From: Burkholderiales bacterium
GTDB lineage: Bacteria; Pseudomonadota; Gammaproteobacteria; Burkholderiales; SG8-39
NCBI GenBank assembly: GCA_035499735.1
Contig: DATJYC010000049.1
Span: 147,070-211,069, forward strand
Direction of reading: 5' to 3'
DNA: 64,000 nt
Shown here: positions 34,951-62,165 of the stretch, in pieces
How the letters are laid out: every line of letters begins with the position of its first letter
Position numbering within the stretch: the first letter of the stretch is position 1
Program-made: the position numbers and the translations under genes
The notes under the pieces: model-generated
Database searches by the model: none
What the model was told of the DNA's origin: nothing
Seen by the model: the letters and a program-made list of their open reading frames with translations, nothing else

Positions 34951-35005
34951 TGAGCGCCCGCACTGCTCGCGGCGATGATTGCGGCTACACTCCGGGACGC
35001 AGGCG

Positions 35006-39405: not shown

Positions 39406-39419
39406 TTGATTCGAGTCAA
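39406..39419 (+). promoter_or_regulatory. Crp/Fnr-type box TTGAT-TCGA-GTCAA upstream of the formate dehydrogenase genes
   Basis: Read from the sequence. A TAGAAT -10 hexamer at 39443-39448 lies about 30 nt from the box centre, a class-II-like geometry. Confidence 0.6.
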
Positions 39420-45877: not shown

Positions 45878-47211
45878 CGGTCCGGCGCGAGGCGTGGGTG
45901 CCGGCGATCGTCGCTTTCGCCGCCTACCTGCCGTCGTTCGCCGGCGTGTTCCAGTTCGACGACTACAACGTCATCGTCAACGCCCCGGCGGTGCATTCCT
46001 GGCAGGCGCTGGTCGGCAACCTCGGGGTGCGGCCGCTCCTCAAGGCGAGCTACGTGCTGAACTGGACGCTCGCTCCTGGAGAGTTCGGTTTTCACCTTGT
46101 CAACATCGCGGCGCACGCGCTCAACGCGGCGCTGCTCTACCTGGTCGGCTTCACGCTGTGCGTGCGCTGGTTCGGGGAGGCGGATCCGGACCGGTCGCGC
46201 GGCGTGGCGCTCGCCGCGGCCCTGCTCTTCGCGCTGCACCCCGCGCAGACCGAGGCGGTGACCTACATCAGCGGGCGCTCGGTATCCCTCATGGCGACCT
46301 TCTATCTCGGCGCCGTGCTCGTGTATCTACGCCGCGGGCATTGGGCCGTGTCGGCGCTGCTCTTCGCGCTCGCGCTGGCGACGCGCGAGACCGCGGTCAC
46401 CCTGCCGGCGGCGCTGATCCTGTGCGAGCTGTGCGGCGGAGGCCCGCGAAGCTGGAAGGACGTGCTGCGGCGGCAGGCAGCGCATTGGGCGGTGCTGACG
46501 GCGGCGACCGCGATCGCGCTGCTGCACCCGGGCTACGCCGAGCTGCTGAGCTACGGGTTTACGCGGCGAAGCGCCCCTGAGAACCTGCTCACCCAGGTGG
46601 GCGGCATCGCCTACCTCGTCTCGCGCCTCCTCGCGCTGCGCGGCTACAACATCGACCCGGCGCTCCCGCCGCTCGCCGGATGGGACGCGGAGCTGGCCGC
46701 GCAGGCGGCGCTGCTCGCCGCGCTGTTCGCGCTCGGTGTTGGCAGCGCGCGCTCGCGCCCGTGGATCGCGTTCGGAATACTCTGGTTCTTCCTTCAGCTC
46801 GCGCCGACGAATTCGATCGTTCCGCGCCTGGACGTCGCGAACGACCGCCAGCTCTACCTCTCGGCATGGGGGCTGTTCCTCGCGCTCGGCGCGCAAGCCT
46901 CCCGACTCAGGCCGCCCCCGGCGGCGGCGCGCGCGGCGACCGGTATCCTGCTCGGACTGTGCGCTGTCTCATGCGTTCTGCGGCAGCTCGACTACGCCAG
47001 CGAGATCTCGCTCTGGGAATCGAGCGTGCGCGAAGCGCCTTGGAACGCCCGCGCGCACGGCAACCTCGGCTACGCGTACCATCTCGCCGGACGAACCGCG
47101 GACGCGGAGCGCGAGTATCGATCAGCGCTTATCCTGCGGCCGGGTTACGGGAAGGCGCGAATGAATCTCAAGGCGCTCGAATGGGATCGCGAGGGTGCGC
47201 CGCAGCAGTGA
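45874..47211 (+). CDS. Polytopic membrane protein with C-terminal TPR repeats (TMTC/PMT-like glycosyltransferase fold candidate)
   Basis: ATGA overlap with the upstream stop. N-terminal FQFDDYNVIVNAP motif, about 9-10 TM helices and C-terminal TPRs (NARAHGNLGYAYHLAGRTADAEREYRSAL). Confidence 0.6.
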   Translation: MTVRREAWVPAIVAFAAYLPSFAGVFQFDDYNVIVNAPAVHSWQALVGNLGVRPLLKASYVLNWTLAPGEFGFHLVNIAAHALNAALLYLVGFTLCVRWFGEADPDRSRGVALAAALLFALHPAQTEAVTYISGRSVSLMATFYLGAVLVYLRRGHWAVSALLFALALATRETAVTLPAALILCELCGGGPRSWKDVLRRQAAHWAVLTAATAIALLHPGYAELLSYGFTRRSAPENLLTQVGGIAYLVSRLLALRGYNIDPALPPLAGWDAELAAQAALLAALFALGVGSARSRPWIAFGILWFFLQLAPTNSIVPRLDVANDRQLYLSAWGLFLALGAQASRLRPPPAAARAATGILLGLCAVSCVLRQLDYASEISLWESSVREAPWNARAHGNLGYAYHLAGRTADAEREYRSALILRPGYGKARMNLKALEWDREGAPQQ

Positions 47212-47244
47212 GGCCCGAGCCCCGCGCCCTGCGCCGCAACCCTC

Positions 47245-47258
47245 TTGATTTCCGTCAA
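47245..47258 (+). promoter_or_regulatory. Crp/Fnr-type box TTGAT-TTCC-GTCAA upstream of fhs
   Basis: Read from the sequence. A TATAGT -10 hexamer at 47282-47287 lies about 30 nt from the box centre. An AGGAG SD precedes ATG 47335. Confidence 0.6.
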
Positions 47259-47334
47259 TGTCCGGCCAAATGCACACACCGTATAGTGCTCCTCCGCCAC
47301 GACCGATCGTTCCGGAAGCCCACAGGAGCCGTAG

Positions 47335-49005
47335 ATGCCCTCCGACATAGAAATCGCGCAGAAAGCCAAACTCGAACGCATCTCGAAGGTCGCGCTGTCG
47401 AAGCTCGGAATTCCCGAGGAGCATCTGGAGCCCTACGGGCACTACAAGGCGAAGGTCTCGCTCAAGTACCTCGACGGGCTGAAGGCGAAGCCCGACTCCA
47501 AGCTCGTGCTGGTCACGGCGATCAGCCCCACGCCTGCCGGCGAGGGCAAGACGACGACGACGGTGGGGCTGGGCGATGCGCTCAACCACATCGGCAAGAA
47601 GGCGATGATCTGCCTGCGCGAGCCTTCGCTCGGGCCCGTATTCGGCATGAAGGGCGGGGCCGCCGGCGGCGGCTACGCCCAGGTCGTCCCGATGGAAGAC
47701 ATCAACCTGCACTTCACGGGCGACTTCAACGCGATCGCGCTCGCGAACAACCTGCTTGCCGCGATGCTCGACAACCACATCCATCACGGCAACGAGCTCG
47801 GGATCGACGTGCGCCGCATCGCCTGGCGGCGCGTCGTGGACATGAACGATCGCGCGCTGCGCGACATCACGGTGAGCCTCGGCGGACCCGGCAACGGCTA
47901 CCCGCGCCAGGACGGATTCGACATCGTCGTCGCTTCCGAAGTCATGGCGATCTTCTGCCTGTCGACCTCGCTCGAAGACCTGAAGGAGCGCCTGGGCAAG
48001 ATCGTCGTCGGCTACACCCGCGACCTGAAGCCTGTTCTGGCGAAGGACCTCGGCGCCCACGGCGCCATGACGGTGCTGCTCAAGGACGCGATCCAGCCGA
48101 ACCTGGTGCAGACGCTCGAGAACAACCCCGCGTTCATCCACGGCGGCCCGTTCGCCAACATCGCGCACGGCTGCAATTCGGTGATCGCCACCAGGGCGGC
48201 GATGAAGCTCGTCGACTACGTGGTGACGGAAGCGGGCTTCGGTGCCGACCTGGGGGCGGAGAAGTTCATCGACATCAAGTGCCGCAAGTCCGGGCTGCGA
48301 CCGAGCGCCGCCGTTATCGTCGGCACGGTGCGTGCGCTGAAATACCACGGGGGCGTAGACCTGAAAGCGGTCAATCAGGAGAACATGGCCGCGCTCGAGC
48401 GGGGCATCGTGAACCTCGAGCGGCACGTCGAGAACGTGAGCAAGCACTATGGCATTCCTTGCGTGGTGTCCATCAACCGCTTCACCTTCGATACGCCACG
48501 CGAGCACGACTTCATCAAGGCGAGGATGGCCAAGCTCGGTGTCCCGGCGGTGATCGCCACGCACTGGGGCGACGGCGGCAAGGGCGCCGCCGAGCTCGCG
48601 AAGATCGTCGTCGGCCTGTGCGAGACGAAGAACAGCTTTCACTTCGTCTACGGCGAGAACGATTCCTTGTGGGAGAAGATCACAGCGATCGCCCAGCGCA
48701 TCTACCGGGCCTCGGAAGTCACCGCGGACGCCAAAGTGCGTGGCCAGATCAAGAAGCTCCAGGAAGACGGGTATGGGCATTATCCCGTGTGCGTCGCCAA
48801 GACCCAGTACTCCTTCTCGACGGATCCGCAGCTGCGCGGCGCCCCGGACAACCACGTGATCAACATCCGCGAGGTGCGCCTGGCGGCGGGCGCCGAGTTC
48901 ATCGTGATGATCTGCGGAGACGTCATGACCATGCCGGGGCTGCCCAAGGTGCCGTCGGCGGTCAAGATCGATCTGGTCGACGGAAAAGTGGTCGGCTTGT
49001 TCTGA
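47335..49005 (+). CDS. fhs: Formate--tetrahydrofolate ligase
   Basis: [14 protein letters not shown]-terminus, P-loop [14 protein letters not shown] and FTHFS sequence throughout. Confidence 0.93.
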
Positions 49006-49036
49006 TCGCGTAACTCCAGGTCCGGGAGACGAGTGA

Positions 49037-49771
49037 ATGCAAGAGCTGGTCACCTCGCAATTCTGGCTGGGGCTTCTGGCGATCATCTGGGTGAACGTCA
49101 TCCTGTCCGGGGACAACGCGGTCGTGATCGCGTTGGCTGCGCGGTCCCTGCCCGTGCATCAACAGAAGCGGGCGGTGTTCTGGGGCGCGGCCGCCGCGGT
49201 GGTTCTGCGGATCGTTCTGACCATCGTCGCGGTGGAGCTGCTCAAGCTTCCCTACCTCAAGCTCATCGGCGGGGCGCTCCTCTTCTGGATCGCGGTGAAG
49301 CTGCTCGTGCCGGAGGACAGCGAGGGGGACGACGTCGTCTCGAGCTCCCATCTGATCGGCGCTATCAAGACCATTCTGATCGCAGACCTGGTGATGAGCC
49401 TGGACAACGTCATCGCGGTCGCCGCGGTGGCCAAGGGCAGCATCGTGCTGCTCGTGCTCGGCTTGCTGATCAGCATCCCGATGGTGGTATACGGGGCGAC
49501 CATGCTGATGAAGCTGATGGACCGCTTCCCGGTGATCGTCACGGTTGGCGCCGCGCTCATCGGCTTCGTGGCAGGAGAGATGATCGTGACCGATCCGGTC
49601 GTGATCGAATGGTTCAAGGCGAACGCACGCTGGATGATCGATATCGAAGTGTTCCGCGCTTTCGGTTACAAGCTGGAGGTATCGGTGGCGGGCCTCATCG
49701 GCGCGGTGCTGGTGGTCCTCGCCGGAAAGTGGTTGGCGGGGGGCAGCAGACCGGAGGGGCAGGCGAGCTAG
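49037..49771 (+). CDS. TerC/YjbE family integral membrane protein
   Basis: LSGDNAVVIA and a second LSLDNVIAVAAV repeat, characteristic of the TerC family. Confidence 0.85.
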   Translation: MQELVTSQFWLGLLAIIWVNVILSGDNAVVIALAARSLPVHQQKRAVFWGAAAAVVLRIVLTIVAVELLKLPYLKLIGGALLFWIAVKLLVPEDSEGDDVVSSSHLIGAIKTILIADLVMSLDNVIAVAAVAKGSIVLLVLGLLISIPMVVYGATMLMKLMDRFPVIVTVGAALIGFVAGEMIVTDPVVIEWFKANARWMIDIEVFRAFGYKLEVSVAGLIGAVLVVLAGKWLAGGSRPEGQAS

Positions 49772-49849
49772 TCTGGATATAATGGCCGGGTGCGGAAACG
49801 CAGCCGGATGTCAGGAAGCAGCAGGCAGTTCCAACAAAGGAGGAGAGAC

Positions 49850-50863
49850 ATGCAGTTCTATATCGAGCGGGCTTCACGCTGGAACGCTTCATTGTTGGCT
49901 GTCCTTGCGGTGGCGGGTGCTCCGCAGGCGTCATGGGCGGCCTGGGAGCCGAACAAGACCGTGGAATTCATCGTGCCCGCGGGAACGGGCGGTGGAGCCG
50001 ACCAGATGGCGCGGTTCATCCAGGGCATCGTCGCCAAGCACAAGCTGATGAAGCAGCCGATGGTCGTCATCAACAAGGCGGGCGGCGCGGGCGCCGAGGG
50101 CTTCCTCGACGTCAAGGAGGCCAAGGGCGACGCGCACAAGCTGATCATCACGCTGTCGAACCTGTTCACCACGCCCCTGGCGACCCATACGCCGTTCAAC
50201 TGGCGCGATCTGACGCCGGTGCAAATGATGGCGCTCGACAATTTCGTCCTCTGGGTCAACGCCGAGACGCCTTACAAGACGCCGAAGGACTACATCGCGG
50301 CAGTGAAGGCCGCCGGCGGCAAGTTCAAGATGGGCGGCACGGGGTCCAAGCAGGAGGACCAGATCATCACCGTGGCCATAGAGCGGCAGACCGACGCCAA
50401 GTTCACCTACATCTCGTATCGGGGCGGCGGCGAGGTCGCGGTGCAGCTCGTCGGCAAGCACATCGATTCCACGGTCAACAACCCGATCGAGGCGGTGGCG
50501 CAGTGGCGGGCGGGCACTCTGCGCCCCCTGTGCGTGTTCGACTCCAAGCGCATGCCCTACAAGGCGAAGGTGACGAAGACCATGTCGTGGTACGACATCC
50601 CGACCTGCAAGGAGACGGGACTCGACGTCGAGTACGTCATGCTGCGCGGCATCTTCATGCCGGGAGGCGTGACCCCTGATCAGGTGCAGTACTACGTGGA
50701 TCTCCTGAAGAGAGTGCGCGAGACCCCGGAGTGGAAGGATTTCCTCGAGCAGGGCGCGTTCAACCAGACGACCCTGAACGGCAAGGACTACGAAGCGTGG
50801 GTGGCGCGCGAAGAAGCGCGGCACATCCTGCTCATGAAAGAGGCGGGGTTCCTCGCGCGATGA
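49850..50863 (+). CDS. tctC: Tripartite tricarboxylate transporter substrate-binding protein (Bug/TctC family)
   Basis: AAGGAGGAGA SD before ATG 49850, a signal peptide, and the motifs VEFIVPAGTGGGADQMAR and INKAGGAG. The track start at 49790 is an over-extension. Confidence 0.85.
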   Translation: MQFYIERASRWNASLLAVLAVAGAPQASWAAWEPNKTVEFIVPAGTGGGADQMARFIQGIVAKHKLMKQPMVVINKAGGAGAEGFLDVKEAKGDAHKLIITLSNLFTTPLATHTPFNWRDLTPVQMMALDNFVLWVNAETPYKTPKDYIAAVKAAGGKFKMGGTGSKQEDQIITVAIERQTDAKFTYISYRGGGEVAVQLVGKHIDSTVNNPIEAVAQWRAGTLRPLCVFDSKRMPYKAKVTKTMSWYDIPTCKETGLDVEYVMLRGIFMPGGVTPDQVQYYVDLLKRVRETPEWKDFLEQGAFNQTTLNGKDYEAWVAREEARHILLMKEAGFLAR

Positions 50864-50930
50864 GCTTGTCGCACGCGGGGTGATCCCCCGCGCGGCGCAG
50901 GGCCGGCGGGCGAATCGAAGAGGCGAGGGC

Positions 50931-51434
50931 GTGGAAAACGGAACGGATCGTTCTGCGGCGTCAACGCGGGCCGTGGAAATCGGCGTCGCGGCGATCATCC
51001 TGCTGTTCGGCCTGGTGGTGGTGATCGACAGCTACCGGCTGGGCGCAAGGTGGGGCGATGACGGGCCCCAGCCGGGCTATTTCCCCTTCTACGTCGGCCT
51101 GCTGATCTGCGCCTCGAGCGTCGCGATTCTGATGCGCGCCCTGCGCAATCCGGCGCTCGCGGAAGAGTCCTTCGTGTCGCGCGGGGAGCTGAAGAAGATC
51201 TTCACCGTGCTGGTGCCGACCATCGTCTACGTCGCGCTCATCGCCTGGCTCGGATTCTACGTTGCGTCGACCCTGTACATCGCGTATTTCATGTGGCGGC
51301 TCGGCAAGTACTCCTGGCTCAAGACCGTGCCGGTTTCGGTGGGCGTGAGCGTCGCCTTCTTCCTGATTTTCGAGATCTGGTTTTCGGTGCCGCTGCCGAA
51401 GGGGCCTCTGGAGTCGGCCCTGGGCCTGGGTTGA
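50931..51434 (+). CDS. tctB: Tripartite tricarboxylate transporter small membrane subunit (TctB family)
   Basis: Four predicted TM helices and a conserved position between tctC and tctA. The start is uncertain (GTG 50931 or the track start 50880). Confidence 0.7.
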   Translation: MENGTDRSAASTRAVEIGVAAIILLFGLVVVIDSYRLGARWGDDGPQPGYFPFYVGLLICASSVAILMRALRNPALAEESFVSRGELKKIFTVLVPTIVYVALIAWLGFYVASTLYIAYFMWRLGKYSWLKTVPVSVGVSVAFFLIFEIWFSVPLPKGPLESALGLG

Positions 51435-51439
51435 CCTGA

Positions 51440-52960
51440 GTGGAAGAGATCAACGCACTCCTGGGGGGATTCGGCGTCGCCTTCACCCCCTTCAACCTGA
51501 TGCTGATGTTCGTGGGCGTCATCCTCGGCATCATCATCGGCGTGCTTCCCGGGCTGGGCGGTGCGAACGGCGTCGCGATCCTCCTGCCCCTGACCTTCTC
51601 CATGTCGCAGCAGCCGGGCGGCACAACCTCGGCGATCATCCTGCTGTCGTGCATCTACTGGGGAGCGCTTTTCGGCGGCGCCATCACCTCGATCCTCTTC
51701 AATATACCGGGCGAGCCCTGGTCGGTCGCGACGACCTTCGACGGTCATCCGCTCGCGCAGCACGGGCGCGCGGGCAGCGCCCTGACTGCGGCATTCACCT
51801 CGTCGTTCGTCGGGGCGCTGATCGCCGTGATCATGATCACCTTCCTGTCGCCGGTCGTGGCGAGCTTCGCGCTGAAGTTCGGGCCGCCCGAGTTCTTCTC
51901 CGTCTACCTGCTGACGTTCTGCGCGTTCGTCGGAATGAGCGGCGGCAACGCCGCCAAGACCGTCGCCTCGATGATGATCGGCTTCGCTCTCGCCGCGGTC
52001 GGCCTGGACAGCGTCACCGGGACGCTTCGCCTCACGTTCGGCTTCACCTCGCTCCTCAAGGGGTTCGACTTCCTGATCGCGGTCATCGGCCTGTTCGGCA
52101 TCGGCGAGATCCTGGAGACGCTCGAGGAGGGCCTCGCTTTCAAGGGAGCGAGCGCGAGGATCAACGCGAAGGTGGTGCTCGAGACCTGGAAGGAGCTTCC
52201 GATGTACTGGGTGACCTCGCTGCGCAGCGCCGCGGTGGGCTGTTTCATGGGCATCGTGCCGGGCGGGGCGACCCCGGCGTCTTTCATGAGCTACGGCCTC
52301 GCCCGGCGCCTGTCCAAGGACGGCAAGGATTTCGGCAACGGCAAGGTCGAGGGGGTCGTCGCGCCGGAGACGGCCGCGCACGCCGCGGGCACCTCGGCGC
52401 TGCTGCCGATGATCACGCTCGGCGTGCCGGGTTCGCCCACCGCCGCGGTGCTCCTCGGAGGCCTGCTGATCTGGGGACTGCAGCCGGGCCCGCTGCTCTT
52501 CGTGGAGAAGCCGGATTTCGTGTGGGGCCTCATCGCCAGCATGTACCTGGGCAATATCGCCGGGCTGATCGTGGTCCTGACCTGCGTGCCGCTGTTCGCG
52601 GCCATCCTGCGCATCCCGTTCTCCATCATCGCGCCGGTGATCATCGTGATCTGCGCGATCGGCGCGTATACCGTGCACAACTCGATGTTCGACGTGTACC
52701 TGATGGTGATCTTCGGAGTGATGGGGTACGCATTCAAGAAGCTGGGGTACCCGCTCGCGCCCTTGGTGCTCGCCCTAGTGCTGGGCGACCGCGCGGAGGA
52801 GAACTTCCGCAACGCCATCAAGGGCTCGCAGGGCGATCTCCTGGTGTTCTTCTCGAACGGCCTGGTCGGCAGCCTGACCGCGCTGGCTCTGCTCCTGCTG
52901 TTCTGGCCCCTGTTGCGGGCGCTGTGGGCGCGCGTGTTGTCGGGGAGGCGCGGCGCCTAG
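51440..52960 (+). CDS. tctA: Tripartite tricarboxylate transporter large permease (TctA family)
   Basis: 506-aa polytopic protein with the GVLPGLGGANGVAILLPLTF motif typical of TctA. GTG start. Confidence 0.88.
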   Translation: MEEINALLGGFGVAFTPFNLMLMFVGVILGIIIGVLPGLGGANGVAILLPLTFSMSQQPGGTTSAIILLSCIYWGALFGGAITSILFNIPGEPWSVATTFDGHPLAQHGRAGSALTAAFTSSFVGALIAVIMITFLSPVVASFALKFGPPEFFSVYLLTFCAFVGMSGGNAAKTVASMMIGFALAAVGLDSVTGTLRLTFGFTSLLKGFDFLIAVIGLFGIGEILETLEEGLAFKGASARINAKVVLETWKELPMYWVTSLRSAAVGCFMGIVPGGATPASFMSYGLARRLSKDGKDFGNGKVEGVVAPETAAHAAGTSALLPMITLGVPGSPTAAVLLGGLLIWGLQPGPLLFVEKPDFVWGLIASMYLGNIAGLIVVLTCVPLFAAILRIPFSIIAPVIIVICAIGAYTVHNSMFDVYLMVIFGVMGYAFKKLGYPLAPLVLALVLGDRAEENFRNAIKGSQGDLLVFFSNGLVGSLTALALLLLFWPLLRALWARVLSGRRGA

Positions 52961-53601
52961 GCGACCCGCTGTCGCAGGCGCGACAGCGTCTCCGGCGTCA
53001 GATTGAGATAAGACGCAAGCTCCTTCTTGGGGATGCGTCCGAGCAGGTCGGTGTGCTTGCGCATGAAGCGCGCAAGCCGCCCGGGAGCGTCGAGGAGATG
53101 CAGCGTGATCGTGTGGGCCATGACCTCGGACATGAGGCGCATCACCTCGTATTCGAAGCGGAGCTTCACTTCAGTGTGGCGCTCGAGGAACTCGACCCAG
53201 TTGGGCATGGACAGGCGGGCGACCCGCACCTTGGTCACCGCAGCGATGCTGTAGGGCATGGGTGTCTTCATCCGCCATGCGGCATAGGAGGTGTCCATGT
53301 CGGTCTCGGCGGCGAAGCGCAGGATCATCTCCTTGCCCTGGGGATTGCTGACTACGCGCTTGAGGATGCCGTCCAGGATGAAGAATTGCTCCATGTTCGT
53401 TCCGCCCTGTCGGACCAGCGGCTCGCCCTTGCGGTACTCGGCGACCTCGAGCTGCGGCTCGAGGTCCTCCCAGGCAGGTACCGCCATTTCGCGCAGAATC
53501 AGGTTTTGTTTTAGCTGGAGGCGAATCGTGTTGCGCTGGGGGTGATTGAGGATGGCCGACACGGACGGCAGCGGGCGCGCGAACGAACGGTGGACCGGCA
53601 A
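52957..53601 (-). CDS. Crp/Fnr family transcriptional regulator (no Fe-S cysteine cluster)
   Basis: cNMP-binding-like beta-roll ([12 protein letters not shown]...FFILDGILK) and a C-terminal HTH with the FNR-type recognition motif ExxSR ([11 protein letters not shown]). There are no Cys residues. TTG start as in the track. Confidence 0.85.
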
Positions 53602-53615
53602 TTAAGCGGGATTTA

Positions 53616-53629
53616 TTGACTCCAGTCAA
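53616..53629. promoter_or_regulatory. Perfect Crp/Fnr-type palindrome TTGAC-TCCA-GTCAA between the divergent regulator gene and oxc
   Basis: Read from the sequence. A TACACT -10-like hexamer at 53652-53657 lies about 30 nt from the box centre. The box also sits about 15-28 nt upstream of the regulator start codon. Confidence 0.65.
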
Positions 53630-53717: not shown

Positions 53718-55478
53718 ATGGGAACAGTCGAGCCGCAAGTCGCGTCGGGTCCCGACGCGCAGACGCAGCAGCTGACCGACGGCTTTCAGCTGGTCATCGA
53801 TGCCCTGAAGCTGAACGGGCTCGATACGATCTACGGCCTGCCCGGCATCCCGATCACTGACCTGACGCGCCGGGCGCAGGCCGCGGGGCTGCGCGTGCTT
53901 TCGTTCCGCCACGAGCAGAGCGCCGGCTATGCCGCCTCCATCGCCGGCTTCCTGACGCAGAAGCCGGGCATATGCCTGACGGTATCGGCGCCGGGCTTCC
54001 TGAACGGGCTCAACGCGCTCGCCCACGCCACCGTCAACTGCTTCCCGATGATCCTCATCTCGGGCTCCTCCGAGCGCGAAATCGTCGACCTGCAGCAGGG
54101 CGACTACGAGGAGCTGGACCAGCTCGCGATCGCCAAGCCGGTCGCCAAGGCCGCGTTCCGCGTGCTGCATGCCGAGGATATCGGCGTCGGCATCGCGCGC
54201 GCTATCCGCGCCGCCGTGTCCGGCCGCCCGGGTGGCGTGTACCTCGATCTGCCGGCGAAGCTCTTCGCACAGAGCGTCGATGCGGAGCTGGGAACGAAGA
54301 GCCTGATCAAGGTCGTCGATCCGGCGCCGAAGCAGATTCCCGCGCCCGAAGCCGTGAAGCGCGCCATCGATCTTCTCAAGAGCGCGAGAAAGCCGCTCAT
54401 CATCCTCGGCAAAGGCGCCGCCTACGCCCAGGCCGACGCTGAAATCCGTTCCCTGGTCGAGAAGACCGGGATCCCCTACCTGCCGATGTCGATGGCGAAA
54501 GGCCTGCTCCCCGACACGCACGAGCAGTGCGCCTCTGCGGCGCGCTCCTTTGTGCTTCCCGCAGCCGACGTCGTGATGCTGGTCGGCGCGCGTCTCAACT
54601 GGCTTCTGTCGCACGGAAAGGGCAAGACCTGGGGCGGCAAGGGCCACAAGGACTGGGGCGGTCAGAAGTTCATCCAGATCGACATTTCGCCGCAGGAGGC
54701 CGACAGCAACGTGCGCATCGACGCACCGCTGATCGGCGACATCGGCTCGTGCGTCTCAGCGCTGCTCGCGGGCATCGACAAGAATGCGGGCTTGCTGCCC
54801 AGGCCGCCCGCGGATTGGCTGAACGCCGTCGCCGAGAAGAAGAAGGGCAACGTCGCGAAGATGGCCGAGACGCTGGCCAAGAATCCGTCTCCGATGAACT
54901 TCCACAGCGCGCTGAGCGTCGTGCGCGACATCGTGAGGGCGAACCCGGATGCGATGTTCGTGAACGAGGGCGCCAACGCGCTCGACTTCACGCGCTCGAT
55001 CGTCGACATGTACAAGCCGAGGAAGCGCATCGACGTCGGAACGTGGGGAATCATGGGGATCGGCATGGGCTACTGCGTGGCTGCCGCAGTGGTGACCAAG
55101 CAGCAGGTGATTGCCATCGAGGGCGACAGTGCTTTCGGCTTCTCGGGCATGGAGGTGGAGACGATTTGCCGCTACGACCTGCCGGTGTGCATCGTGGTGA
55201 TGAACAACAACGGAGTCTACAAGGGCACCGACACGGATCCGAGCGGCCGCGATCCGGCGCCCACCGTGTTCGTGAAGGGCGCGCGCTACGACAAGCTGAT
55301 CGAAGCTTTCGGTGGCTTGGGCGTGAATGCCGCCACGCCGGCCGAGCTGAGGAAGGCAATGGAGAACGCGATTCGCTCGAGAAAGCCGACGCTCATCAAC
55401 GCTGTGATCGACGAGACCGCCGGCACCGAGAGCGGCCGCATCACCGGCCTGAATCCGACGGCGGCGAAGAAGAAGTAG
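53718..55478 (+). CDS. oxc: Oxalyl-CoA decarboxylase (ThDP-dependent)
   Basis: AAGGAGA SD before ATG 53718. [29 protein letters not shown]-terminus and ThDP motif [18 protein letters not shown]...NNNG. Confidence 0.9.
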
Positions 55479-55494: not shown

Positions 55495-56766
55495 ATGGAA
55501 GCGCTCAAGGGAGTCCGCATTCTCGACATGACGCACGTTCAGGCGGGCCCGACCTGCTCGCAGCTCCTGGCCTGGATGGGCGCGGATGTCATCAAGTTCG
55601 AGAATCCGCAGGGTGACGCGACGCGCGGCCAGCTGCGCGACGTGCCGAACGCGGATTCTCTCTACTTCACGATGCTCAACTGCAACAAGCGCTCGATCAC
55701 GGTGAACATGAAGAGCGCGGAAGGCAAGACGGTGTTCGTCGATCTCCTGAAGAAGTGCGACATCGTCATGGAGAACTTCGGCCCGGGCGTGCTCGACCGC
55801 TTCGGCTTCACGTGGGAGAGGATCCACGAGCTCAATCCCAAGATCGTGATGGGCTCGATCAAGGGCTTCGGCTCGTCGGGCCCCTACGCCGATTTCAAAG
55901 CCTACGAGAACGTGGCGCAGGCGATGGGCGGCGCGATGAGCACGACCGGGGTTCCCGACGGTCCTCCCTTCGTGACCGGCGCGCAGATCGGCGACTCCGG
56001 CACCGGCCTGCATCTCGCGATCGGGCTGCTCGCCGCGCTGCGCCACGCGGAGAAGACCGGGAAGGGACAGTACGTCGAGGTGGCGATGATGGACGGCGTG
56101 ATGAACCTGTGCCGCGTGAAGTTCCGCGACCACCAGCGGCTGACGCGCGGGTCGCTGTCGGAGTACTCGGTGCCGACGTACCAGGGCATGGGTGAGGTGC
56201 CGCGCGCGGGCAACGATTCCGGCGGCGGGCAGCTCGGCAACGCGATCCACTGCAAGCCGCACGGCGCGAACGACTGGCTCTACGTGGTCGTCCAGGAAGC
56301 CGTGTGGGAGGACCTCGCGAAGCGTATCGGGCCGGAAGTGGGCGTGCCCGAGCTCGCGTCAGATCCGCGCGTGTCGAGCATCGGCGAGCGGCGCAAGAAC
56401 CAACAGCTCGTGTGGACGCTGCTCAACAAGTTCGCCGAGAAGTACACCAAGCGCGAGCTGATGGCCATTCTGAATCCGCTCGACGTGCCCTGTGGCCCGA
56501 TCATGTCCACCGAGGATCTCGCGACCGACGAGCACGTGCGCGGGCGCGACATGTGGGTCGAGCTCGACCATCCCAAGCGCGGCAAGTGGTACAACGTGGG
56601 CATGCCGATCAAGCTGTCGGCCTCGCCCGCCGTGATCAAGCGCTCGCCGATGCTCGGCGAGCATACCGATGAAATCCTCCGCGAGGTCCTGGGCTACGAC
56701 GAATCCAAGGTCGCCGTCCTCAAGCAGGCCGGCGCGTTCTCGATTCCACCGAAGAAGGCGGCGTAG
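55495..56766 (+). CDS. frc: Formyl-CoA:oxalate CoA-transferase (class III CoA-transferase)
   Basis: LKGVRILDMTHVQAGPTCSQLLAWMGADVIKFE N-terminus and Frc-like sequence throughout. Confidence 0.9.
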   Translation: MEALKGVRILDMTHVQAGPTCSQLLAWMGADVIKFENPQGDATRGQLRDVPNADSLYFTMLNCNKRSITVNMKSAEGKTVFVDLLKKCDIVMENFGPGVLDRFGFTWERIHELNPKIVMGSIKGFGSSGPYADFKAYENVAQAMGGAMSTTGVPDGPPFVTGAQIGDSGTGLHLAIGLLAALRHAEKTGKGQYVEVAMMDGVMNLCRVKFRDHQRLTRGSLSEYSVPTYQGMGEVPRAGNDSGGGQLGNAIHCKPHGANDWLYVVVQEAVWEDLAKRIGPEVGVPELASDPRVSSIGERRKNQQLVWTLLNKFAEKYTKRELMAILNPLDVPCGPIMSTEDLATDEHVRGRDMWVELDHPKRGKWYNVGMPIKLSASPAVIKRSPMLGEHTDEILREVLGYDESKVAVLKQAGAFSIPPKKAA

Positions 56767-56769
56767 GCG

Positions 56770-57702
56770 ATGAGGATAGCCATCATCGGCCAGCAGGACT
56801 TCGGCAAGGCGGTGCTCGAGGCCTTCCTCGCGCGCGGCGACCAGGTTACGGGCGTGTTCTGTGCGCCGGAGAAGGAGGGCGCCAAGGCGGACGTCCTCAA
56901 GGTGGCGGCGCAGGAGAAGGGCGTGAAGGTGTTCCAGTTCCCGTCGCTCCGGGACAGGCAGGCCCAGGACACGATGCGCTCGCTCGGCGCCGATATCGGG
57001 GTGATGGCTTATGTGCTGCAGTTCGCGCCCCAGGACATCGTCAACATCCCGAAGAAGGGCACGATCCAGTACCACCCGTCGCTCCTTCCCAGGTACCGCG
57101 GCCCGAGCTCCATCAACTGGCCCATCATCCGCGGCGACACCAGGACCGGCCTCACCATCTTCCGCCCGAACGATGGCCTGGACGAGGGCCCGGTGATCCT
57201 GCAAAAGGAAACGCCGATCAGCGCCGACGATACGCTGGGGAGCGTGTACTTCGACCGTCTCTTCCCCATGGGCGTGAAGGCGATGCTGGAGGCCGCCGAC
57301 CTGGTGGTGGCGGGCAAGCACAGGGAGACCGTCCAGGACGAGTCCCAGGCGAGCTACGAGGGCTGGTGCCGCGCCGCCGAAGCCAAGATCAACTGGGCGA
57401 ACCACGTCGATTTCATCTACAACCTGATACGCGGCTGCAATCCCGCCCCCGGCGCTTGGACCACGGTCAACGGGAAGAAGCTGCAGATTTTCGACAGCCG
57501 CAAGCACACGATACGCACCTTCGGCGCCGTGAGAGGCAAGATCGGCGAGATCTCCGAAATCGGCCCGCAGAGCTTCTACGTGACCGCCCAGGGAGGGCGC
57601 ATCGAGGTGCTCAAGGCCAAGCACGAAGAGGGCAAGAAAGTCTCCGCGCCGGAATTCGTCGCGCAGCACGGCATCGCCGCCGGCACGCTCCTCGGCGGCT
57701 AG
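56770..57702 (+). CDS. Stand-alone formyltransferase resembling the N-terminal hydrolase domain of 10-formyl-THF dehydrogenase
   Basis: MRIAIIGQQDFGKAV...VFCAPEKEGAKAD...YHPSLLPRYRGPSSINW...NDGLDEGPVILQKE...AKINW...IRGCNPAPGAWT. By recollection this aligns better with the FDH/ALDH1L1 N-domain than with Fmt. The ATG lies 3 nt after the frc stop. Confidence 0.75.
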   Translation: MRIAIIGQQDFGKAVLEAFLARGDQVTGVFCAPEKEGAKADVLKVAAQEKGVKVFQFPSLRDRQAQDTMRSLGADIGVMAYVLQFAPQDIVNIPKKGTIQYHPSLLPRYRGPSSINWPIIRGDTRTGLTIFRPNDGLDEGPVILQKETPISADDTLGSVYFDRLFPMGVKAMLEAADLVVAGKHRETVQDESQASYEGWCRAAEAKINWANHVDFIYNLIRGCNPAPGAWTTVNGKKLQIFDSRKHTIRTFGAVRGKIGEISEIGPQSFYVTAQGGRIEVLKAKHEEGKKVSAPEFVAQHGIAAGTLLGG

Positions 57703-57934
57703 GCCGCCCGCCCCACCCGTTTCGCGCCCGTCGGCAGGATTTGACGGGTCCAGCATTCACTGTAAGAATGCCGCCCAGGGTTCTGTTTATTCAGTAACTT
57801 ACGAATGCTTTTGGATTCGCGGGCGAACCCGCGCGGGTTCCGGCGTCCGGGCAAATCACTGAGGCGGGTGGCGTAGAATGCGAAACGGGGACAAGACCCC
57901 TCGCTAACAACAATAAGAACAAGCGGGAGAGGCG

Positions 57935-60502
57935 ATGAGCAAAGCGGGCTTCTGGAAAAAAGACTGGTTTCTGGGTCTGGTGGTGTCGCTCGTGCTTCTG
58001 TTCTCGGGGGGCTCGCAGCTCATCCAGGGCCTGGAGCGCACCGCCTACGATTGGGGCGTCAAGGCTTCATCGAGGACTCCCTCCGACAAGGTCGCGATCA
58101 TCGCGATCGACAAGCAGAGCATAGACAACATCGGGCGCTGGCCGTGGTCGCGCGAGATCCACGCGAAGATGATTGACCGCCTCGCGAGCGCAAAGGCCAA
58201 GGTCATTGGCTACACCGTGTTCTTCTCGGAGCCGCAGATCGATCCGGGGCTCACTTACATCAACCGGCTGCTCGAGACCTACCACAAGATCGTCCCGGCC
58301 GATGCGAGCGCGCCGCCGCGCGGCGTTTCCCCCGAGGTCCTCGAGATGGGGGCGACCCTCCAGGAAGCCGAGACCACGCTCAATACCGACCGCAAGCTCG
58401 CGGACAGCTTTTCCAAGGCGGGCAACGTGGTCCTGCCGATGCTGTTTACTTTCGGCGAACCGCGTGGCAAGCCCGACAAGCCTCTTCCCGATTACGTTCG
58501 CAGGAATGCCGTGTCGATCCAGGGCAAGAGCGACGACATCCCCCTGCAAACGGCCGGAGTCGAAGTCCCGGTCGTCGATAGCCTGGGCGCGGCCGCGGCG
58601 GCGGTAGGGCATCTGAACGCCGTGCCCGACGTGGACGGCGCAATCCGGACCGAGGCGCTCGCCGTCACCTATTACGACGAGTTCTATCCGTCGCTGGCGG
58701 CGATGCTGGTCGCGAAGAGCCTCAACCTGTCAGCGAAGGACATCCAGATCCGCCCGGGCGAAGCGCTGCAGATCGGCAATTTCAAGGTGAGCGCCGACCC
58801 GACGATGCAGATGTTCACCTATTTCTACAAGGACCGCGACGGCAAGCCCGCGATCCAGGAGGACTCGTTCTTCGACGTGGCGACCGGCAAGATTCCGGCG
58901 GAAAAGTACCGCGACAAGATCGTGCTCATCGGGCCGACCGCGGCCGGGGTCGGCAGCATATTCGTGACGCCGGTGAATCCGGCGACCCCGGCGGTCGAGC
59001 TCCTGGCCCACACGGTTTCCTCGCTCCTGCAGGGGCACTTCTTCGTCGTCCCCACCTGGGGCTGGATCGTCGAGAGGCTGGTTTTCCTGCTCGTCGCCGC
59101 GTACCTGATCGCCCTGCTTCCGCGCCTGTCGGCGGGACTGGGGGCCGGTGTCACCGGCGGCATCGTGGCGTTGCTGCTCGCGGCGCACTTCGTCCTGATG
59201 ACGGGCCAGGGGATGTGGCTGCAGTTCATGCTTCCGCTCACGCTGCTCGTCGTGGGGCACGTGCTGCTGGTCACCAAGCGCTTCATGGTCACCGAGCGCG
59301 GCAAGGAGGTCTCCGACGCCCAGTCCGCCGCCAACGCGCGCATGCTCGGCCTCGCGTTTCAGGGTCAGGGCCAGCTCGACATGGCCTTCGACTACTTTCG
59401 CAAGGTGCCGCTTGACGACACCGTCATGGATAACCTGTACAACCTCGCTCTGGACTTCGAGCGCAAGCGCCAGTTCAACAAGGCCGAGGCCGTGTTCGGC
59501 TACATGGCCGGCTACAACCCGAAGTTCCGCGACCTCGAAGCCAAGCTCTCGCGCGCCAAGCAGATGTCGGAGACCGTCATTCTTGGAGGGGCGACGACCC
59601 ATCCAGGCGGAACCCTCGCGCTGGGCGGCGGGACCGAGAAACCCATGCTCGGGCGCTATCAGGTCGAGAAGGAGCTCGGCAAGGGCGCCATGGGCGTCGT
59701 GTACCTTGGCAAGGATCCAAAGATCGGCCGCGTCGTGGCCATCAAGACCATGGCGCTCTCGCAGGAGTTCGAGCCCGACGAGCTCGCCGAGGTGAAGGAG
59801 CGCTTCTTCCGGGAAGCCGAAACGGCTGGGCGGCTGAGCCACCCGAACATCGTCACCATCTTCGACGCAGGTGAAGAGCATGACCTGTGTTACATCGCCA
59901 TGGAGCTCCTCAAGGGCAAGGACCTGATCCCCTACACCAAGGCCGGCAGCACCCTGCCGCTCGACAAGGTCGTATCGATCGTCGCGCGCGTGGCGGATGC
60001 TCTGGGCTACGCGCACAAGCACAACGTGGTTCACCGCGACGTCAAGCCGGCCAACGTCATGTATGAGCCCGAAAACGACGTGGTCAAGGTGACCGACTTC
60101 GGCATTGCCCGGATCACCGATTCGTCCAAGACCAAGACGGGGATGGTGCTGGGAACACCTTCGTACATGTCCCCGGAGCAGCTGCAGGGGAAGAAGATCG
60201 ACGGCCGCAGCGACCTTTTTTCGCTAGCGGTGAGCCTGTACCAGCTCGCGTGCGGGGAGCTGCCATTCAAGGGAGACTCGATGGCGCAACTCATGTTCAA
60301 GATCGCCAACGAGAACGCCTCGGACATCCTCCAGTACAACCCCGCGCTTCCCCCGGCGTTGGTCGCCTTTCTCGACAAGGCCATGGCGAAGGAGGCCGAC
60401 CAGCGGTATCAAACGGGCGAGGAATTCGCTTCCGAACTGCGGGCCGCCTTCGGGGGCACCGGCGCCGCGGCATCCGGCACCGGGGTCGATATCACCCTCT
60501 AA
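57935..60502 (+). CDS. CHASE2-domain membrane sensor fused to TPR-like linker and Hanks-type Ser/Thr protein kinase
   Basis: N-terminal TM, CHASE2 motifs (IIAIDKQSIDNIGRWPWSR) and 3 TM helices. Kinase motifs are GKGAMGVVYLG, AIK, HRDVKPANV, DFGIAR and GTPSYMSPE. Confidence 0.88.
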   Translation: MSKAGFWKKDWFLGLVVSLVLLFSGGSQLIQGLERTAYDWGVKASSRTPSDKVAIIAIDKQSIDNIGRWPWSREIHAKMIDRLASAKAKVIGYTVFFSEPQIDPGLTYINRLLETYHKIVPADASAPPRGVSPEVLEMGATLQEAETTLNTDRKLADSFSKAGNVVLPMLFTFGEPRGKPDKPLPDYVRRNAVSIQGKSDDIPLQTAGVEVPVVDSLGAAAAAVGHLNAVPDVDGAIRTEALAVTYYDEFYPSLAAMLVAKSLNLSAKDIQIRPGEALQIGNFKVSADPTMQMFTYFYKDRDGKPAIQEDSFFDVATGKIPAEKYRDKIVLIGPTAAGVGSIFVTPVNPATPAVELLAHTVSSLLQGHFFVVPTWGWIVERLVFLLVAAYLIALLPRLSAGLGAGVTGGIVALLLAAHFVLMTGQGMWLQFMLPLTLLVVGHVLLVTKRFMVTERGKEVSDAQSAANARMLGLAFQGQGQLDMAFDYFRKVPLDDTVMDNLYNLALDFERKRQFNKAEAVFGYMAGYNPKFRDLEAKLSRAKQMSETVILGGATTHPGGTLALGGGTEKPMLGRYQVEKELGKGAMGVVYLGKDPKIGRVVAIKTMALSQEFEPDELAEVKERFFREAETAGRLSHPNIVTIFDAGEEHDLCYIAMELLKGKDLIPYTKAGSTLPLDKVVSIVARVADALGYAHKHNVVHRDVKPANVMYEPENDVVKVTDFGIARITDSSKTKTGMVLGTPSYMSPEQLQGKKIDGRSDLFSLAVSLYQLACGELPFKGDSMAQLMFKIANENASDILQYNPALPPALVAFLDKAMAKEADQRYQTGEEFASELRAAFGGTGAAASGTGVDITL

Positions 60503-60517
60503 ACCGAGCCGAGGACC

Positions 60518-61342
60518 ATGACCTTGTCGGGAGCGCTGGAGATCGCGAGTTGCACGGATCCCGGCATGGTGCGCGCGCACAACGAGGACTCGATCGCCTC
60601 CGATGGGCGCAAGGGGCTGGTCGTGCTCGCCGACGGCATGGGGGGGTACAACGCGGGCGAGGTCGCGAGCGGCATGGCGACCACGGTGATCATCACCGAG
60701 CTGCAGCAGTTGCTCGAGAAGTCCCCGCCGAACGAGACCGACCCTGCCAGCGGCCAGCTGGTTGCACACAAGCTCCTGCACGAGCAGATCGCCAAGGCGA
60801 ACACCTCGATCTACCAGGCCGCGCAGAGCCAGCCCCAGTATGCCGGCATGGGCACGACCCTCGTGGTCGCCCTGTTCTACGACAACAAGATGACGGTCGC
60901 CCACATCGGCGATTCACGCCTGTACCGCCTGCGGGGCGACGAGCTGAAACAGATCACCAAGGATCATTCCCTGCTGCAGGAGCAGATCGACAGCGGGGTC
61001 ATCACCCCGCAGCAGGCAAGGCAATCACAGAACAAGAATCTGGTCACGCGTGCACTCGGCATCGACCCGACGGTCGAACCGGAGATACACGATCACGACA
61101 CGCAGCCGGGGGACATCTACCTGCTCTGCTCGGACGGCCTTTGTGATATGGTTGGCGACGAGGACATCGGCCTGGCGCTGCAGACGCTGAGTTCCAATCT
61201 GAAGCTGTGCGCACAGCATCTGGTGCAGACGGCGAACGACAACGGGGGCCGGGACAACATATCGGTGATACTGGTCCGGGTGCTGCGGGATTTCCCCGCA
61301 TCCCGCGGCATCGTGAGCAAGCTGATGGGCTGGTTTAGATAG
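60518..61342 (+). CDS. PP2C-family Ser/Thr protein phosphatase
   Basis: RAHNEDS, LADGMGG, GMGTTLV and SDGL...DNISVILV motifs. Confidence 0.9.
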   Translation: MTLSGALEIASCTDPGMVRAHNEDSIASDGRKGLVVLADGMGGYNAGEVASGMATTVIITELQQLLEKSPPNETDPASGQLVAHKLLHEQIAKANTSIYQAAQSQPQYAGMGTTLVVALFYDNKMTVAHIGDSRLYRLRGDELKQITKDHSLLQEQIDSGVITPQQARQSQNKNLVTRALGIDPTVEPEIHDHDTQPGDIYLLCSDGLCDMVGDEDIGLALQTLSSNLKLCAQHLVQTANDNGGRDNISVILVRVLRDFPASRGIVSKLMGWFR

Positions 61343-61362
61343 TTGAGCAGAGGGATACTGCT

Positions 61363-62130
61363 ATGGCGAAGCTGATACTGAGCATGGACGGCCTGGTCCT
61401 GAAGGAAATCAACCTGACCAAGGAACGTACCACCATCGGCCGCAAGCCGCACAACGATATCCAGATCGACAACCTGGCGGTGAGCGGGGAGCACGCCGTC
61501 ATCGTCACCATCCTTCAAGATTCGTTCCTCGAGGACCTCGGAAGCACGAATGGAACGGTTGTCAACGGGCAGTCGGTTAAGAAGCACTTCCTCCAGAACA
61601 ACGACATCATCGAGCTCGGGAAATACAAGCTCAAGTACGTGAACGAATCGCCTGCCGGAGTGGCGAAGGCCGCTGATTTCGAGAAGACCATGGTGCTGCG
61701 CCCGGGGGCCGCGAAACCCGCACCCGCGCCGGCGCCCGCTCCCGCCGCTCCGCCCGCCGCCGCGGCCGCGCCGGCGGCGGCAAAGTCCTTCGGGGACACC
61801 GCCGCGGGTCCGGGGCCGGCCACGACCATGCCTCCGGCTTCGGCCAGGCCGGCGGTCGCGGCGCAGAAGGCCGCTGCGCTGCAGCTTCTATCGGGCGCCA
61901 ACGCCGGAAAGGAGCTCGATCTCACCAAGCCGCTCACCACGCTTGGCAAGCCCGGCGTGCAGGTGGCCGTCATCACGCGCCGGCCCCAGGGCTTCTTCAT
62001 CACCCACGTCGAGGGCGCCAGCTTTCCCGTGGTGAACGGGAAGCCCCTCGACGCCCAGGCCCACGCCCTCAACGATCACGACGTCATCGAACTCGCCGGG
62101 GTGAAGATGGAATTCTTCCTCAAGGCGTGA
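61363..62130 (+). CDS. Double FHA-domain protein with Ala/Pro-rich linker
   Basis: FHA1 is canonical (TIGRKPHNDIQI...SGEHAVI...GSTNGTVVNG). The linker is PAPAPAPAPAAPPAAAAAPAAA. FHA2 is degenerate and lacks the GR, SxxH and NG(T/S) signatures. Confidence 0.85.
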   Translation: MAKLILSMDGLVLKEINLTKERTTIGRKPHNDIQIDNLAVSGEHAVIVTILQDSFLEDLGSTNGTVVNGQSVKKHFLQNNDIIELGKYKLKYVNESPAGVAKAADFEKTMVLRPGAAKPAPAPAPAPAAPPAAAAAPAAAKSFGDTAAGPGPATTMPPASARPAVAAQKAAALQLLSGANAGKELDLTKPLTTLGKPGVQVAVITRRPQGFFITHVEGASFPVVNGKPLDAQAHALNDHDVIELAGVKMEFFLKA

Positions 62131-62165
62131 GCCCTGGTCCCTAGACCCAGAGCGGGGGAGGCCGC

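Follow-up and report, generated by a model that had tools for sequence, protein, structure and literature searches.

Why does a formyltransferase gene stand directly behind frc, the gene of formyl-coenzyme A (formyl-CoA):oxalate CoA-transferase, in an oxalate operon? The question is raised by a 64-kb window (the whole stretch of DNA analyzed here; 66.6% G+C) of contig DATJYC010000049.1 from a Burkholderiales bacterium, whose nearest relatives were uncultured metagenome-assembled genomes of Burkholderiales type from soil and freshwater. The product of open reading frame (ORF) 56770..57702 of this window, hereafter called FT, was compared with protein families, known structures and related loci. 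On the basis of current results, we give a probability of roughly 60% to the reading that FT is a thiol-directed formyltransferase, which would interconvert 10-formyl-tetrahydrofolate (10-formyl-THF) + CoA and THF + formyl-CoA in either direction. The gene and its two partners are as follows:

56770..57702, + strand: FT, stand-alone formyltransferase resembling the N-terminal domain of 10-formyl-THF dehydrogenase (Nt-FDH), candidate formyl-CoA:THF formyltransferase, 310 aa (Pfam, NCBIfam, comparison with the Protein Data Bank (PDB), AlphaFold2 (AF2) model)
55495..56766, + strand: frc, formyl-CoA:oxalate CoA-transferase (TIGR03253, 558 bits, cut-off 504)
53718..55478, + strand: oxc, oxalyl-CoA decarboxylase, first gene of oxc-frc-FT (TIGR03254, 971 bits, cut-off 739)

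The ATG of FT lies 3 nt past the stop codon of frc (frc end 56766), and these coordinates agree with those of a first-pass annotation that had assigned the gene to the oxc-frc unit. A Shine-Dalgarno-like GAAGG was found 12-16 nt 5' of this ATG, and the G+C content at third codon positions (GC3) of FT was 0.92, similar to that of the adjoining genes. The start of oxc matched the gene call on identical contigs, with AAGGAG as its ribosome-binding site. A terminator scan 3' of FT gave no convincing terminator, and no PP-binding or Aldedh gene was present in the FT operon.

Family placement of FT

FT contains the Pfam domains Formyl_trans_N (PF00551; 106.8 bits, cut-off 26.1) and Formyl_trans_C (PF02911; 63.0 bits, cut-off 21.1). 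Public sources (JGI, Prokka) name these proteins only 'methionyl-tRNA formyltransferase' (Fmt). When FT was ranked against PDB sequences by phmmer, the top similarity was to ALDH1L1/Nt-FDH (203-212 bits, E about 1e-61, residues 1-247 of FT), and the other matches were E. coli Fmt (142 bits), ArnA (94), HypX (36), PurN (34) and PurU (23). Identity was about 40% to the N-terminal domain of ALDH1L1 (ALDH1L1-N; trimmed alignment) and about 31% to Fmt. Judged by sequence, FT is thus closest to ALDH1L1-N and not to Fmt, as the first-pass annotation had proposed (212 versus 142 bits). The alignment along the whole length that it had also claimed was found by sequence for residues 1-247 and by Foldseek for the full length, but the C-terminal ~60 residues of FT aligned only weakly with ALDH1L1 by sequence. 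Each of the motifs it had listed (HPSLLPRYRG, GLDEG, IIGQ..FG, GVF..P.K.G.KAD, LQKE, AKINW and PGAWT) was present in FT.

Among the NCBIfam equivalogs, FT scored under the cut-off of every formyltransferase model. The best-scoring model was fmt (TIGR00460; 161.8 bits, cut-off 201.5), and scores of 129.5 bits (cut-off 777) and 28.4 bits (cut-off 238) were obtained for the ArnA and sugar formyltransferase equivalogs, respectively; FT was likewise far from the cut-offs of PurN and PurU. ArnA and the sugar N-formyltransferases also differ from FT in occurring as a dehydrogenase fusion or in a nucleotide-sugar context, to which the context of FT is unrelated. A neighbor-joining tree (39 sequences, 200 bootstraps) was built from full-length representatives that an exhaustive search through 1.84 billion proteins had yielded, together with E. 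coli Fmt and ArnA. In this tree, FT was located in an FDH-N-like group with the ALDH1L1 N-domains (56%) and E. coli Fmt in an Fmt clade (64%). The phylogeny suggested in the first-pass annotation, together with the signatures described below, therefore placed FT with Nt-FDH and outside Fmt and ArnA. It should be noted that the tree is distance-based, that deep nodes in the FDH-N-like group were weakly supported and that monophyly of the frc-linked proteins was not established by it.

Conserved residues were examined in two sets of 80 loci (160 in all), which were also used for the analysis of gene linkage: clade 1 (75-88% identical to FT, from GTDB species genomes) and clade 2, found in metagenomes of soil and peat (about 52% identity to FT; its Frc is about 53% identical to that of the window). 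His102, Ser104, Asp138, Arg110, Phe85 and Tyr196 of FT were invariant in clade 1 (79/79) and in clade 2 (80/80). Their counterparts in ALDH1L1, the His/Ser/Asp triad (His106, Ser108 and Asp142) as well as Arg114, Phe89 and Tyr200, matter in Nt-FDH according to structures and mutagenesis. Fmt and ArnA have an invariant catalytic Asn (N-x-H), which was lost in both FT and ALDH1L1, with different replacements: Gln100 in 159 of 159 FT relatives and Ile in ALDH1L1 (position 104), where mutation back to Asn crippled the enzyme. FT and ALDH1L1 also share a short beta2-alpha2 loop (13 and 12 aa, respectively), compared with 18 aa in Fmt, whose RGKK-type insert contacts the tRNA acceptor end. This 5-aa insert (the tRNA loop of Fmt, E. 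coli residues about 36-53) was absent from all 160 FT sequences. In addition, a 1-aa insertion ahead of LFP.G was common to FT and ALDH1L1-N and was absent from 10 of 10 Fmt sequences, and the signatures YHPS and RG.S.INW were found in FT and ALDH1L1-N but not in Fmt.

The AF2 model of FT (pLDDT 94.4) has the same two-subdomain fold as ALDH1L1-N, and its alignments with Nt-FDH, Fmt and ArnA spanned about 310 columns. By TM-score, the Foldseek matches were closer for Fmt (0.89-0.93) than for Nt-FDH (0.83-0.86), which counts against our assignment, and Nt-FDH structures ranked first by 3Di+AA E-value only. Fold alone does not separate Nt-FDH from Fmt. In the profile and structure comparison proposed in the first-pass annotation, it was the sequence evidence that favored Nt-FDH. 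Charge of the C-terminal subdomain was similar in FT and Fmt and gave no separation, and the specificity-determining positions offered a weak lead only, a conserved Lys13 in the beta1-alpha1 loop.

It could be argued that FT is an Fmt, perhaps a second one that is induced on oxalate. The two share the same domain architecture, the fold (TM about 0.9), the SLLP motif and the catalytic His and Asp, and both the top NCBIfam score and the JGI and Prokka labels agree with such a function. However, FT fell short of the TIGR00460 cut-off, scored 70 bits higher with Nt-FDH than with Fmt, lay outside the Fmt clade and had neither the loop insert nor the conserved Asn. Its context is oxc-frc rather than def-fmt, and it never adjoined def in the loci examined. 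Moreover, the label 'fmt_2' in the marine strain La 6 (see below) implies that a separate housekeeping fmt exists. A role as Fmt is hardly credible in our opinion.

Gene linkage and predicted regulation

There were 146 loci with 1.5 kb or more of sequence upstream of FT, and 142 of them encoded Frc directly 5' of FT. The linkage to frc and oxc on which the first-pass annotation had built its proposal was therefore kept across deep clades and rearranged gene orders. The usual order was fhs-terC-tctCBA / crp(-) / oxc-frc-FT in clade 1 and (tctCBA or oxlT)-oxc-frc-FT-fhs in clade 2, fhs being the gene of formate-tetrahydrofolate ligase (Fhs); frc-FT-fhs occurred in 62 of the 80 clade 2 loci. FT and fhs overlapped by 4 nt in one locus (L081), and an FT-Fhs pair persisted without Frc in another (L105). 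Clade 1 and some of clade 2 showed synteny in the block of terC and tct genes, and a Crp/Fnr-family regulator adjoined the cluster in 55 of 80 loci, Ferrovaceae among them. A PanE/ApbA reductase adjoined FT in 10 clade 1 loci.

Several rearranged loci were identified: TauE-FT-TctCBA-Crp-Oxc-Frc, with FT at 63% identity; Frc-FT-SDR, at 42% identity to FT; OxlT-TauE-Frc-FT-Crp in Ferrovaceae, where oxc was absent within 10 kb; a Gallionella type in which a thiamine diphosphate (TPP) enzyme resembling 2-hydroxyacyl-CoA lyase (HACL) or PRK05858 was followed by Frc-FT-PanE; and two loci (L022 and L069) with FT-PanE pairs, where the opposite strand encodes the TPP enzyme, OxlT and Frc. The longer FT homologs fell into tandem duplications, fragments and proteins of the ALDH1L1 type (FT + PP-binding + Aldedh); none carried Frc, Fhs or a CoA-binding module as a fusion partner.

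Two neighbors in these loci deserve mention in their own right. The TPP enzyme near Frc-FT (L009 6426-8138, L043 640-2442, L080 3019-4740, L037, L022 and L069), in Gallionella-type and some Burkholderiales loci, is not canonical Oxc. These proteins scored 242-261 bits with Oxc, well under the cut-offs, and about 500 and 359 bits with PRK05858 and 2-hydroxyacyl-CoA lyase, each also under its own cut-off. They could stand in for Oxc in decarboxylating oxalyl-CoA, or be some other lyase with formyl-CoA as a product. A TauE/SafE-family membrane protein recurred beside Frc-FT or FT (L017 6131-8330 and other Ferrovaceae; L083 1217-2017). In Ferrovaceae, a bona fide OxlT oxalate:formate antiporter (599 bits) was found just 5' of it, and it may be an additional formate/oxalate permease.

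Outside these two clades, the operon was found in La 6, a cultured marine member of Paracoccaceae, on plasmid pLA6_002 (CP031587.1; L176 1-18912), in the order ydfH-oxc-frc_5-fmt_2-fhs_2-USP-Tct, where FT is LA6_005544. A ketopantoate-reductase-like gene (PanE/ApbA) and glyA2 were located downstream, and ppc and sucCD-like genes upstream, where the fourth sucCD-like pair could be malate thiokinase. These surroundings point to a plasmid-borne oxalate assimilation. Further stand-alone relatives (P0130, P0138, P0154 and P0178) were found in unrelated contexts and were not linked to frc; P0154 and P0178 were the stand-alone proteins nearest to ALDH1L1-N in the tree. P0138 (L085-L089), the tree sister of FT and 44% identical to it, has RPYEG for GLDEG and IHA for YHP. 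It has lost the catalytic Asp, its neighbors are an aldolase_II and a GntR gene, and it probably represents a branch whose catalysis is changed or lost. Given these unrelated contexts and the missing Asp of P0138, the superfamily is functionally diverse, and its fold by itself does not prescribe the function proposed for FT.

With regard to regulation, TTGAY-N4-GTCAA operators were spotted by eye in the window and confirmed by a pattern search, which gave four distinct sites in 64 kb versus 0.10 expected. The sites and the genes that they precede are as follows:

53616..53629, no strand: CRP/FNR-type operator TTGACTCCAGTCAA in the divergent crp-oxc promoter region, 89 nt 5' of oxc
47245..47258, no strand: CRP/FNR-type operator TTGATTTCCGTCAA, 77 nt 5' of fhs
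39406-39419: CRP/FNR-type box, 36 nt 5' of the NAD-linked formate dehydrogenase genes
34937-34950: CRP/FNR-type box, 29 nt 5' of the gene of ADP-forming succinate-CoA ligase
52957..53601, - strand: Crp/Fnr-family regulator, divergent from oxc (Pfam cNMP_binding and HTH_Crp_2)
47335..49005, + strand: fhs, formate-tetrahydrofolate ligase (PF01268, 885 bits; NF010030, 903 bits)
49037..52960, + strand: terC and tctC-tctB-tctA, between fhs and the regulator gene (Pfam TerC, TctC, TctB and TctA)
39455-41149 and 41166-43970, + strand: FdsB-like and FdsA-like genes, respectively, of an NAD-linked molybdo-formate dehydrogenase (Pfam)
34979-36271, + strand: succinate-CoA ligase beta subunit, ADP-forming (NF001913, 582 bits, cut-off 370)

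A relaxed box (TTGAY-N4-RTCAA) was then counted in 80 related loci, for oxc within 250 nt upstream. Upstream of oxc it was present in 45 of 47 loci; for fhs the count was 12 of 16 and for tctC 23 of 35. It was absent upstream of FT (0/78), terC (0/34) and the downstream kinase (0/46). Within the window itself, neither a CRP/FNR-type box nor another promoter-like site was found between oxc and FT. Since the boxes precede oxc and fhs and never FT, FT would be expressed from the oxc promoter, with fhs in the same regulon. FT is thus predicted to be the third gene of an oxc-frc-FT operon that is transcribed from the oxc promoter, and to be translationally coupled to frc. The putative operators appear to mark a regulon of succinate-CoA ligase, NAD-linked formate dehydrogenase, fhs-terC and oxc-frc-FT. 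The Crp-family protein encoded at 52957-53601 is likely their regulator; it has no Cys residues and is therefore not an O2-sensing FNR. The tctC-tctB-tctA tripartite transporter is presumed to serve oxalate uptake.

Some other features of the window were also observed. A relaxed CRP/FNR-type site (27968-27981) lies 5' of a gene for the binding protein of an ABC transporter. A signaling cluster (57935-64000) follows FT directly on its 3' side and was syntenic in relatives; it encodes a CHASE2-Ser/Thr kinase (57935-60502), a PP2C protein (60518-61342), an FHA protein (61363-62130) and a CHASE2-nucleotidyl cyclase that extends from 62193 past the end of the window. Longer identical contigs (L091 15424-19528) add a CHASE2-guanylate/adenylate cyclase, a class II phosphodiesterase and a cNMP-binding/rhodanese protein. 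Because the oxalate regulator has a cNMP-binding domain, this CHASE2 cyclase cluster might supply its ligand. The TerC-family membrane protein (49037-49771) was kept between fhs and tctC in 34 clade 1 loci, and its gene appears to be co-transcribed with fhs. Directly 5' of fhs, an ORF at 45823-47211 (445-462 aa) without Pfam match is coding-like (GC3 0.87), and public contigs of identical sequence annotate it as a gene too. Long overlapping ORFs occurred throughout the window, for example 46680-49013 (+ strand), 47122-49116 (- strand) and 56359-57756 (- strand), one of them of 465 aa antisense to FT. They are the usual artefacts of 67% G+C DNA that is poor in stop codons; their GC3 patterns and those at second codon positions (GC2) were not coding-like.

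Candidate chemistry and direction of formyl transfer

What could such an enzyme do beside Frc? In ALDH1L1, the N-terminal domain takes formyl from 10-formyl-THF and transfers it to a 4'-phosphopantetheine arm, whose thiol accepts it. The 'hydrolase' activity of isolated Nt-FDH requires non-physiological thiols in high concentration, a role that 4'-phosphopantetheine takes in vivo, and 2-mercaptoethanol has been modeled as the attacking nucleophile in its place. The premise of the first-pass annotation, transfer of formyl to a pantetheine thiol, is therefore documented, and HypX adds a precedent with CoA. FT would use the same His102/Ser104/Asp138 machinery, presumably also moving the N10-formyl of THF to a pantetheine thiol. 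It differs from ALDH1L1 in its surroundings: the ALDH1L1 domain is fused to a 4'-phosphopantetheine carrier and an aldehyde dehydrogenase, its acceptor is the tethered 4'-phosphopantetheine and the formyl group is oxidized to CO2, whereas FT is free-standing (310 aa, two formyltransferase domains), its proposed acceptor is free CoA and its product would be released, in a setting of oxalate and formyl-CoA metabolism. Free CoA is the most plausible acceptor because FT is a homolog without a carrier domain whose constant neighbor makes or uses formyl-CoA. Transfer to a pantetheine thiol is likewise suggested by homology and by these formyl-CoA-handling neighbors, whereas reversibility and the net direction of transfer are inferred.

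An acceptor other than CoA should also be considered, namely holo-acyl carrier protein (ACP), pantetheine, a low-molecular-weight thiol or an amine of oxalate or glyoxylate metabolism. The closest characterized relative does use a protein-bound 4'-phosphopantetheine, and the unrelated contexts of the wider stand-alone family suggest that acceptors may be diverse. However, the frc-linked clades showed no ACP or PP-binding gene and no such fusion, the sole fusions being of the ALDH1L1 type; the adjoining enzymes make and use formyl-CoA; and the Asn of amine-formylating enzymes is lost in FT. We regard another acceptor as improbable.

The second precedent is the domain at the N terminus of HypX/HoxX (6J0P), which takes part in the synthesis of the CO ligand of O2-tolerant [NiFe] hydrogenase. 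It has been proposed to formylate CoA, with free or bound CoA as the acceptor, and is the only described formyltransferase-fold domain proposed to make formyl-CoA from 10-formyl-THF and CoA. His and Asp are conserved between HypX and FT, but the relationship is distant (36 bits, Foldseek TM 0.67, 16-17% identity), and Asp80 of HypX replaces the triad Ser that FT retains. In addition, HypX carries a fused decarbonylase domain, similar to enoyl-CoA hydratase (ECH), that holds CoA as a prosthetic group; it is encoded in hyp operons, and its formyl-CoA stays bound as an intermediate instead of leaving as a metabolite. FT is a stand-alone protein.

The first-pass annotation had offered hydrolysis of 10-formyl-THF as an alternative, which would make FT a PurU-like relief valve that yields THF and formate, possibly in a thiol-dependent manner. 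Isolated Nt-FDH does hydrolyze this substrate in vitro, the catalytic residues are common to FT, and FT and PurU have the Formyl_trans_N core and, in this case, the substrate in common. Nevertheless, the requirement of Nt-FDH for non-physiological thiol casts doubt on the physiological relevance of that activity, and a hydrolase co-expressed or translationally coupled with Fhs would be a futile cycle that wastes ATP. Hydrolysis also leaves the near-obligate adjacency to Frc unexplained. PurU has an N-terminal ACT domain, absent from FT, and no Formyl_trans_C, and the PurU models gave FT only 21.4-23.1 bits against cut-offs of 223-286. A hydrolase seems quite improbable.

If FT is a formyl-CoA:THF formyltransferase, in which direction would it work? 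The literature recognizes that the Oxc/Frc cycle has to be primed, and YfdE (acetyl-CoA:oxalate CoA-transferase) is the proposed primer. Formyl-CoA has a half-life of 1.9 h, compared with 92 h for acetyl-CoA, and oxalyl-CoA can be withdrawn by ApbA2/PanE2, the oxalyl-CoA reductase that forms glyoxylate. A possible answer is that Fhs first converts formate made by the pathway, ATP and THF to 10-formyl-THF, at a cost of one ATP; FT would then form formyl-CoA and THF from 10-formyl-THF and CoA, and Frc would transfer CoA from formyl-CoA to oxalate, giving oxalyl-CoA and formate. Together, the three enzymes could start the Oxc/Frc cycle and could replace thioester that is lost to formyl-CoA hydrolysis or to oxalyl-CoA reduction of the PanE2/ApbA2 type for assimilation, and Oxc, whose decarboxylation is irreversible, would draw these steps forward. 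The proposed chemistry of FT taken together with this direction is a tentative view. The net reaction would be oxalate + ATP + CoA -> oxalyl-CoA + ADP + Pi; a description of Fhs, FT and Frc as a THF-mediated, ADP-forming 'oxalyl-CoA synthetase', with formate and THF as catalytic carriers, we put forward as possible but doubtful. In such a role FT would resemble a YfdE-type transferase in supplying the CoA thioester that activates oxalate when formyl-CoA is short, although YfdE is an unrelated class III CoA-transferase that uses acetyl-CoA as donor.

The opposite net direction has to be weighed against this one. Formyl-CoA from Oxc would then react with THF to give 10-formyl-THF and CoA, feeding C1 biosynthesis or the serine cycle without free formate. 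In a variant, Fhs running in reverse could yield ATP (formyl-CoA + ADP + Pi -> formate + ATP + CoA), which could fit, for example, oxalyl-CoA made by glyoxylate oxidation with a PanE2-type enzyme. All evidence from family and linkage counts equally for this direction, its standard free energies are probably favorable, and some loci agree with it: serine-cycle-type genes (glyA2, ppc and sucCD-like genes) flank the La 6 cluster, Ferrovaceae loci with OxlT and no nearby fhs would gain C1 units independent of formate, and the FT-PanE pairs of L022 and L069 fit a route glyoxylate -> oxalyl-CoA -> formyl-CoA in which Frc would have no acceptor acid. However, the number of CoA thioesters is constant in the Oxc/Frc cycle, so that, on stoichiometric grounds, formyl-CoA diverted from it is a lost Frc donor that leaves one oxalate without activation, and the ATP saved at Fhs would be respent on re-activation. 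The ATP saving that the first-pass annotation had expected from a bypass of Fhs would thus not arise. Fhs, whose gene adjoins FT or is co-regulated with it, makes the same product and would render FT redundant. A bypass of Fhs is therefore not supported and is arguably disfavored. FT and Frc would also compete for formyl-CoA, yet it is Frc and not Oxc that is the constant neighbor. Net transfer from formyl-CoA to THF, in either variant, is in our view unlikely.

Thus, the sequence Fhs->FT->Frc is slightly favored over a shuttle from formyl-CoA to 10-formyl-THF. Since fhs adjoins FT or is co-regulated with it, the two enzymes would be partners rather than alternatives. Both characterized relatives, Nt-FDH and HypX, run from THF to a thiol, which by analogy would count for the same direction. 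A thioester source also appears to be needed: none of the 160 FT loci has a second class III CoA-transferase, which some oxc clusters do carry, and PanE/ApbA stands beside FT in some of them.

Several observations weigh on the other side. Formyl transfer from a thioester to N10 is probably mildly favored, judging from textbook free energies, and the THF-to-CoA direction would therefore need a downstream pull. The cycle could also be primed without FT by succinate-CoA ligase, whose gene has the same operator, if Frc is promiscuous. No fhs was found within 10 kb in Ferrovaceae-type and Gallionella-type loci. At the level of the chemistry itself, no CoA-binding site was identified in FT, with Lys13 as the sole lead, and both the higher TM-scores for Fmt and the stand-alone relatives outside frc contexts also argue against our assignment.

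Significance for oxalate metabolism and for the formyltransferase family

A full-text literature search found no description of the FT gene or of a free formyl-CoA:THF formyltransferase, and recent reviews of oxalotrophy list Oxc, Frc, oxalyl-CoA reductase and formate dehydrogenase but no formyltransferase. For the chemistry, Nt-FDH and HypX are precedents; what would be new is a free-standing enzyme with a diffusible CoA substrate, embedded in oxalate catabolism. If our assignment is correct, FT would add a missing enzyme to the textbook oxalate pathway, and no free-standing metabolic enzyme would precede it in making or using formyl-CoA from the folate pool. The assignment bears on a recognized gap, namely the priming of the autocatalytic Oxc/Frc cycle and the replacement of thioester lost from it. 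If Fhs, FT and Frc act together as an oxalyl-CoA synthetase, they would give many soil oxalotrophs their missing net thioester source, including for the withdrawal of oxalyl-CoA for assimilation.

The FT gene is near-constant in the oxc-frc operons of abundant Burkholderiales-type lineages from soil, peat and freshwater. It is likewise near-constant in a second large clade, in which the two 90%-identity clusters examined hold 1,095 and 654 sequences. The same operon occurs in the marine alphaproteobacterium La 6, a cultured, tractable strain for the genetics of oxc-frc-FT-fhs. A systematic misannotation, thousands of proteins labeled 'methionyl-tRNA formyltransferase', would be corrected as well. 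For synthetic C1 use, formyl-CoA elongation pathways need a cheap conversion of formate to formyl-CoA, and Fhs + FT would provide it for one ATP to ADP. Finally, our data provide a bacterial functional context for the lineage that gave rise to the folate domain of ALDH1L1, whose thiol-directed chemistry, if FT acts as proposed, would already have existed in stand-alone enzymes of bacteria.

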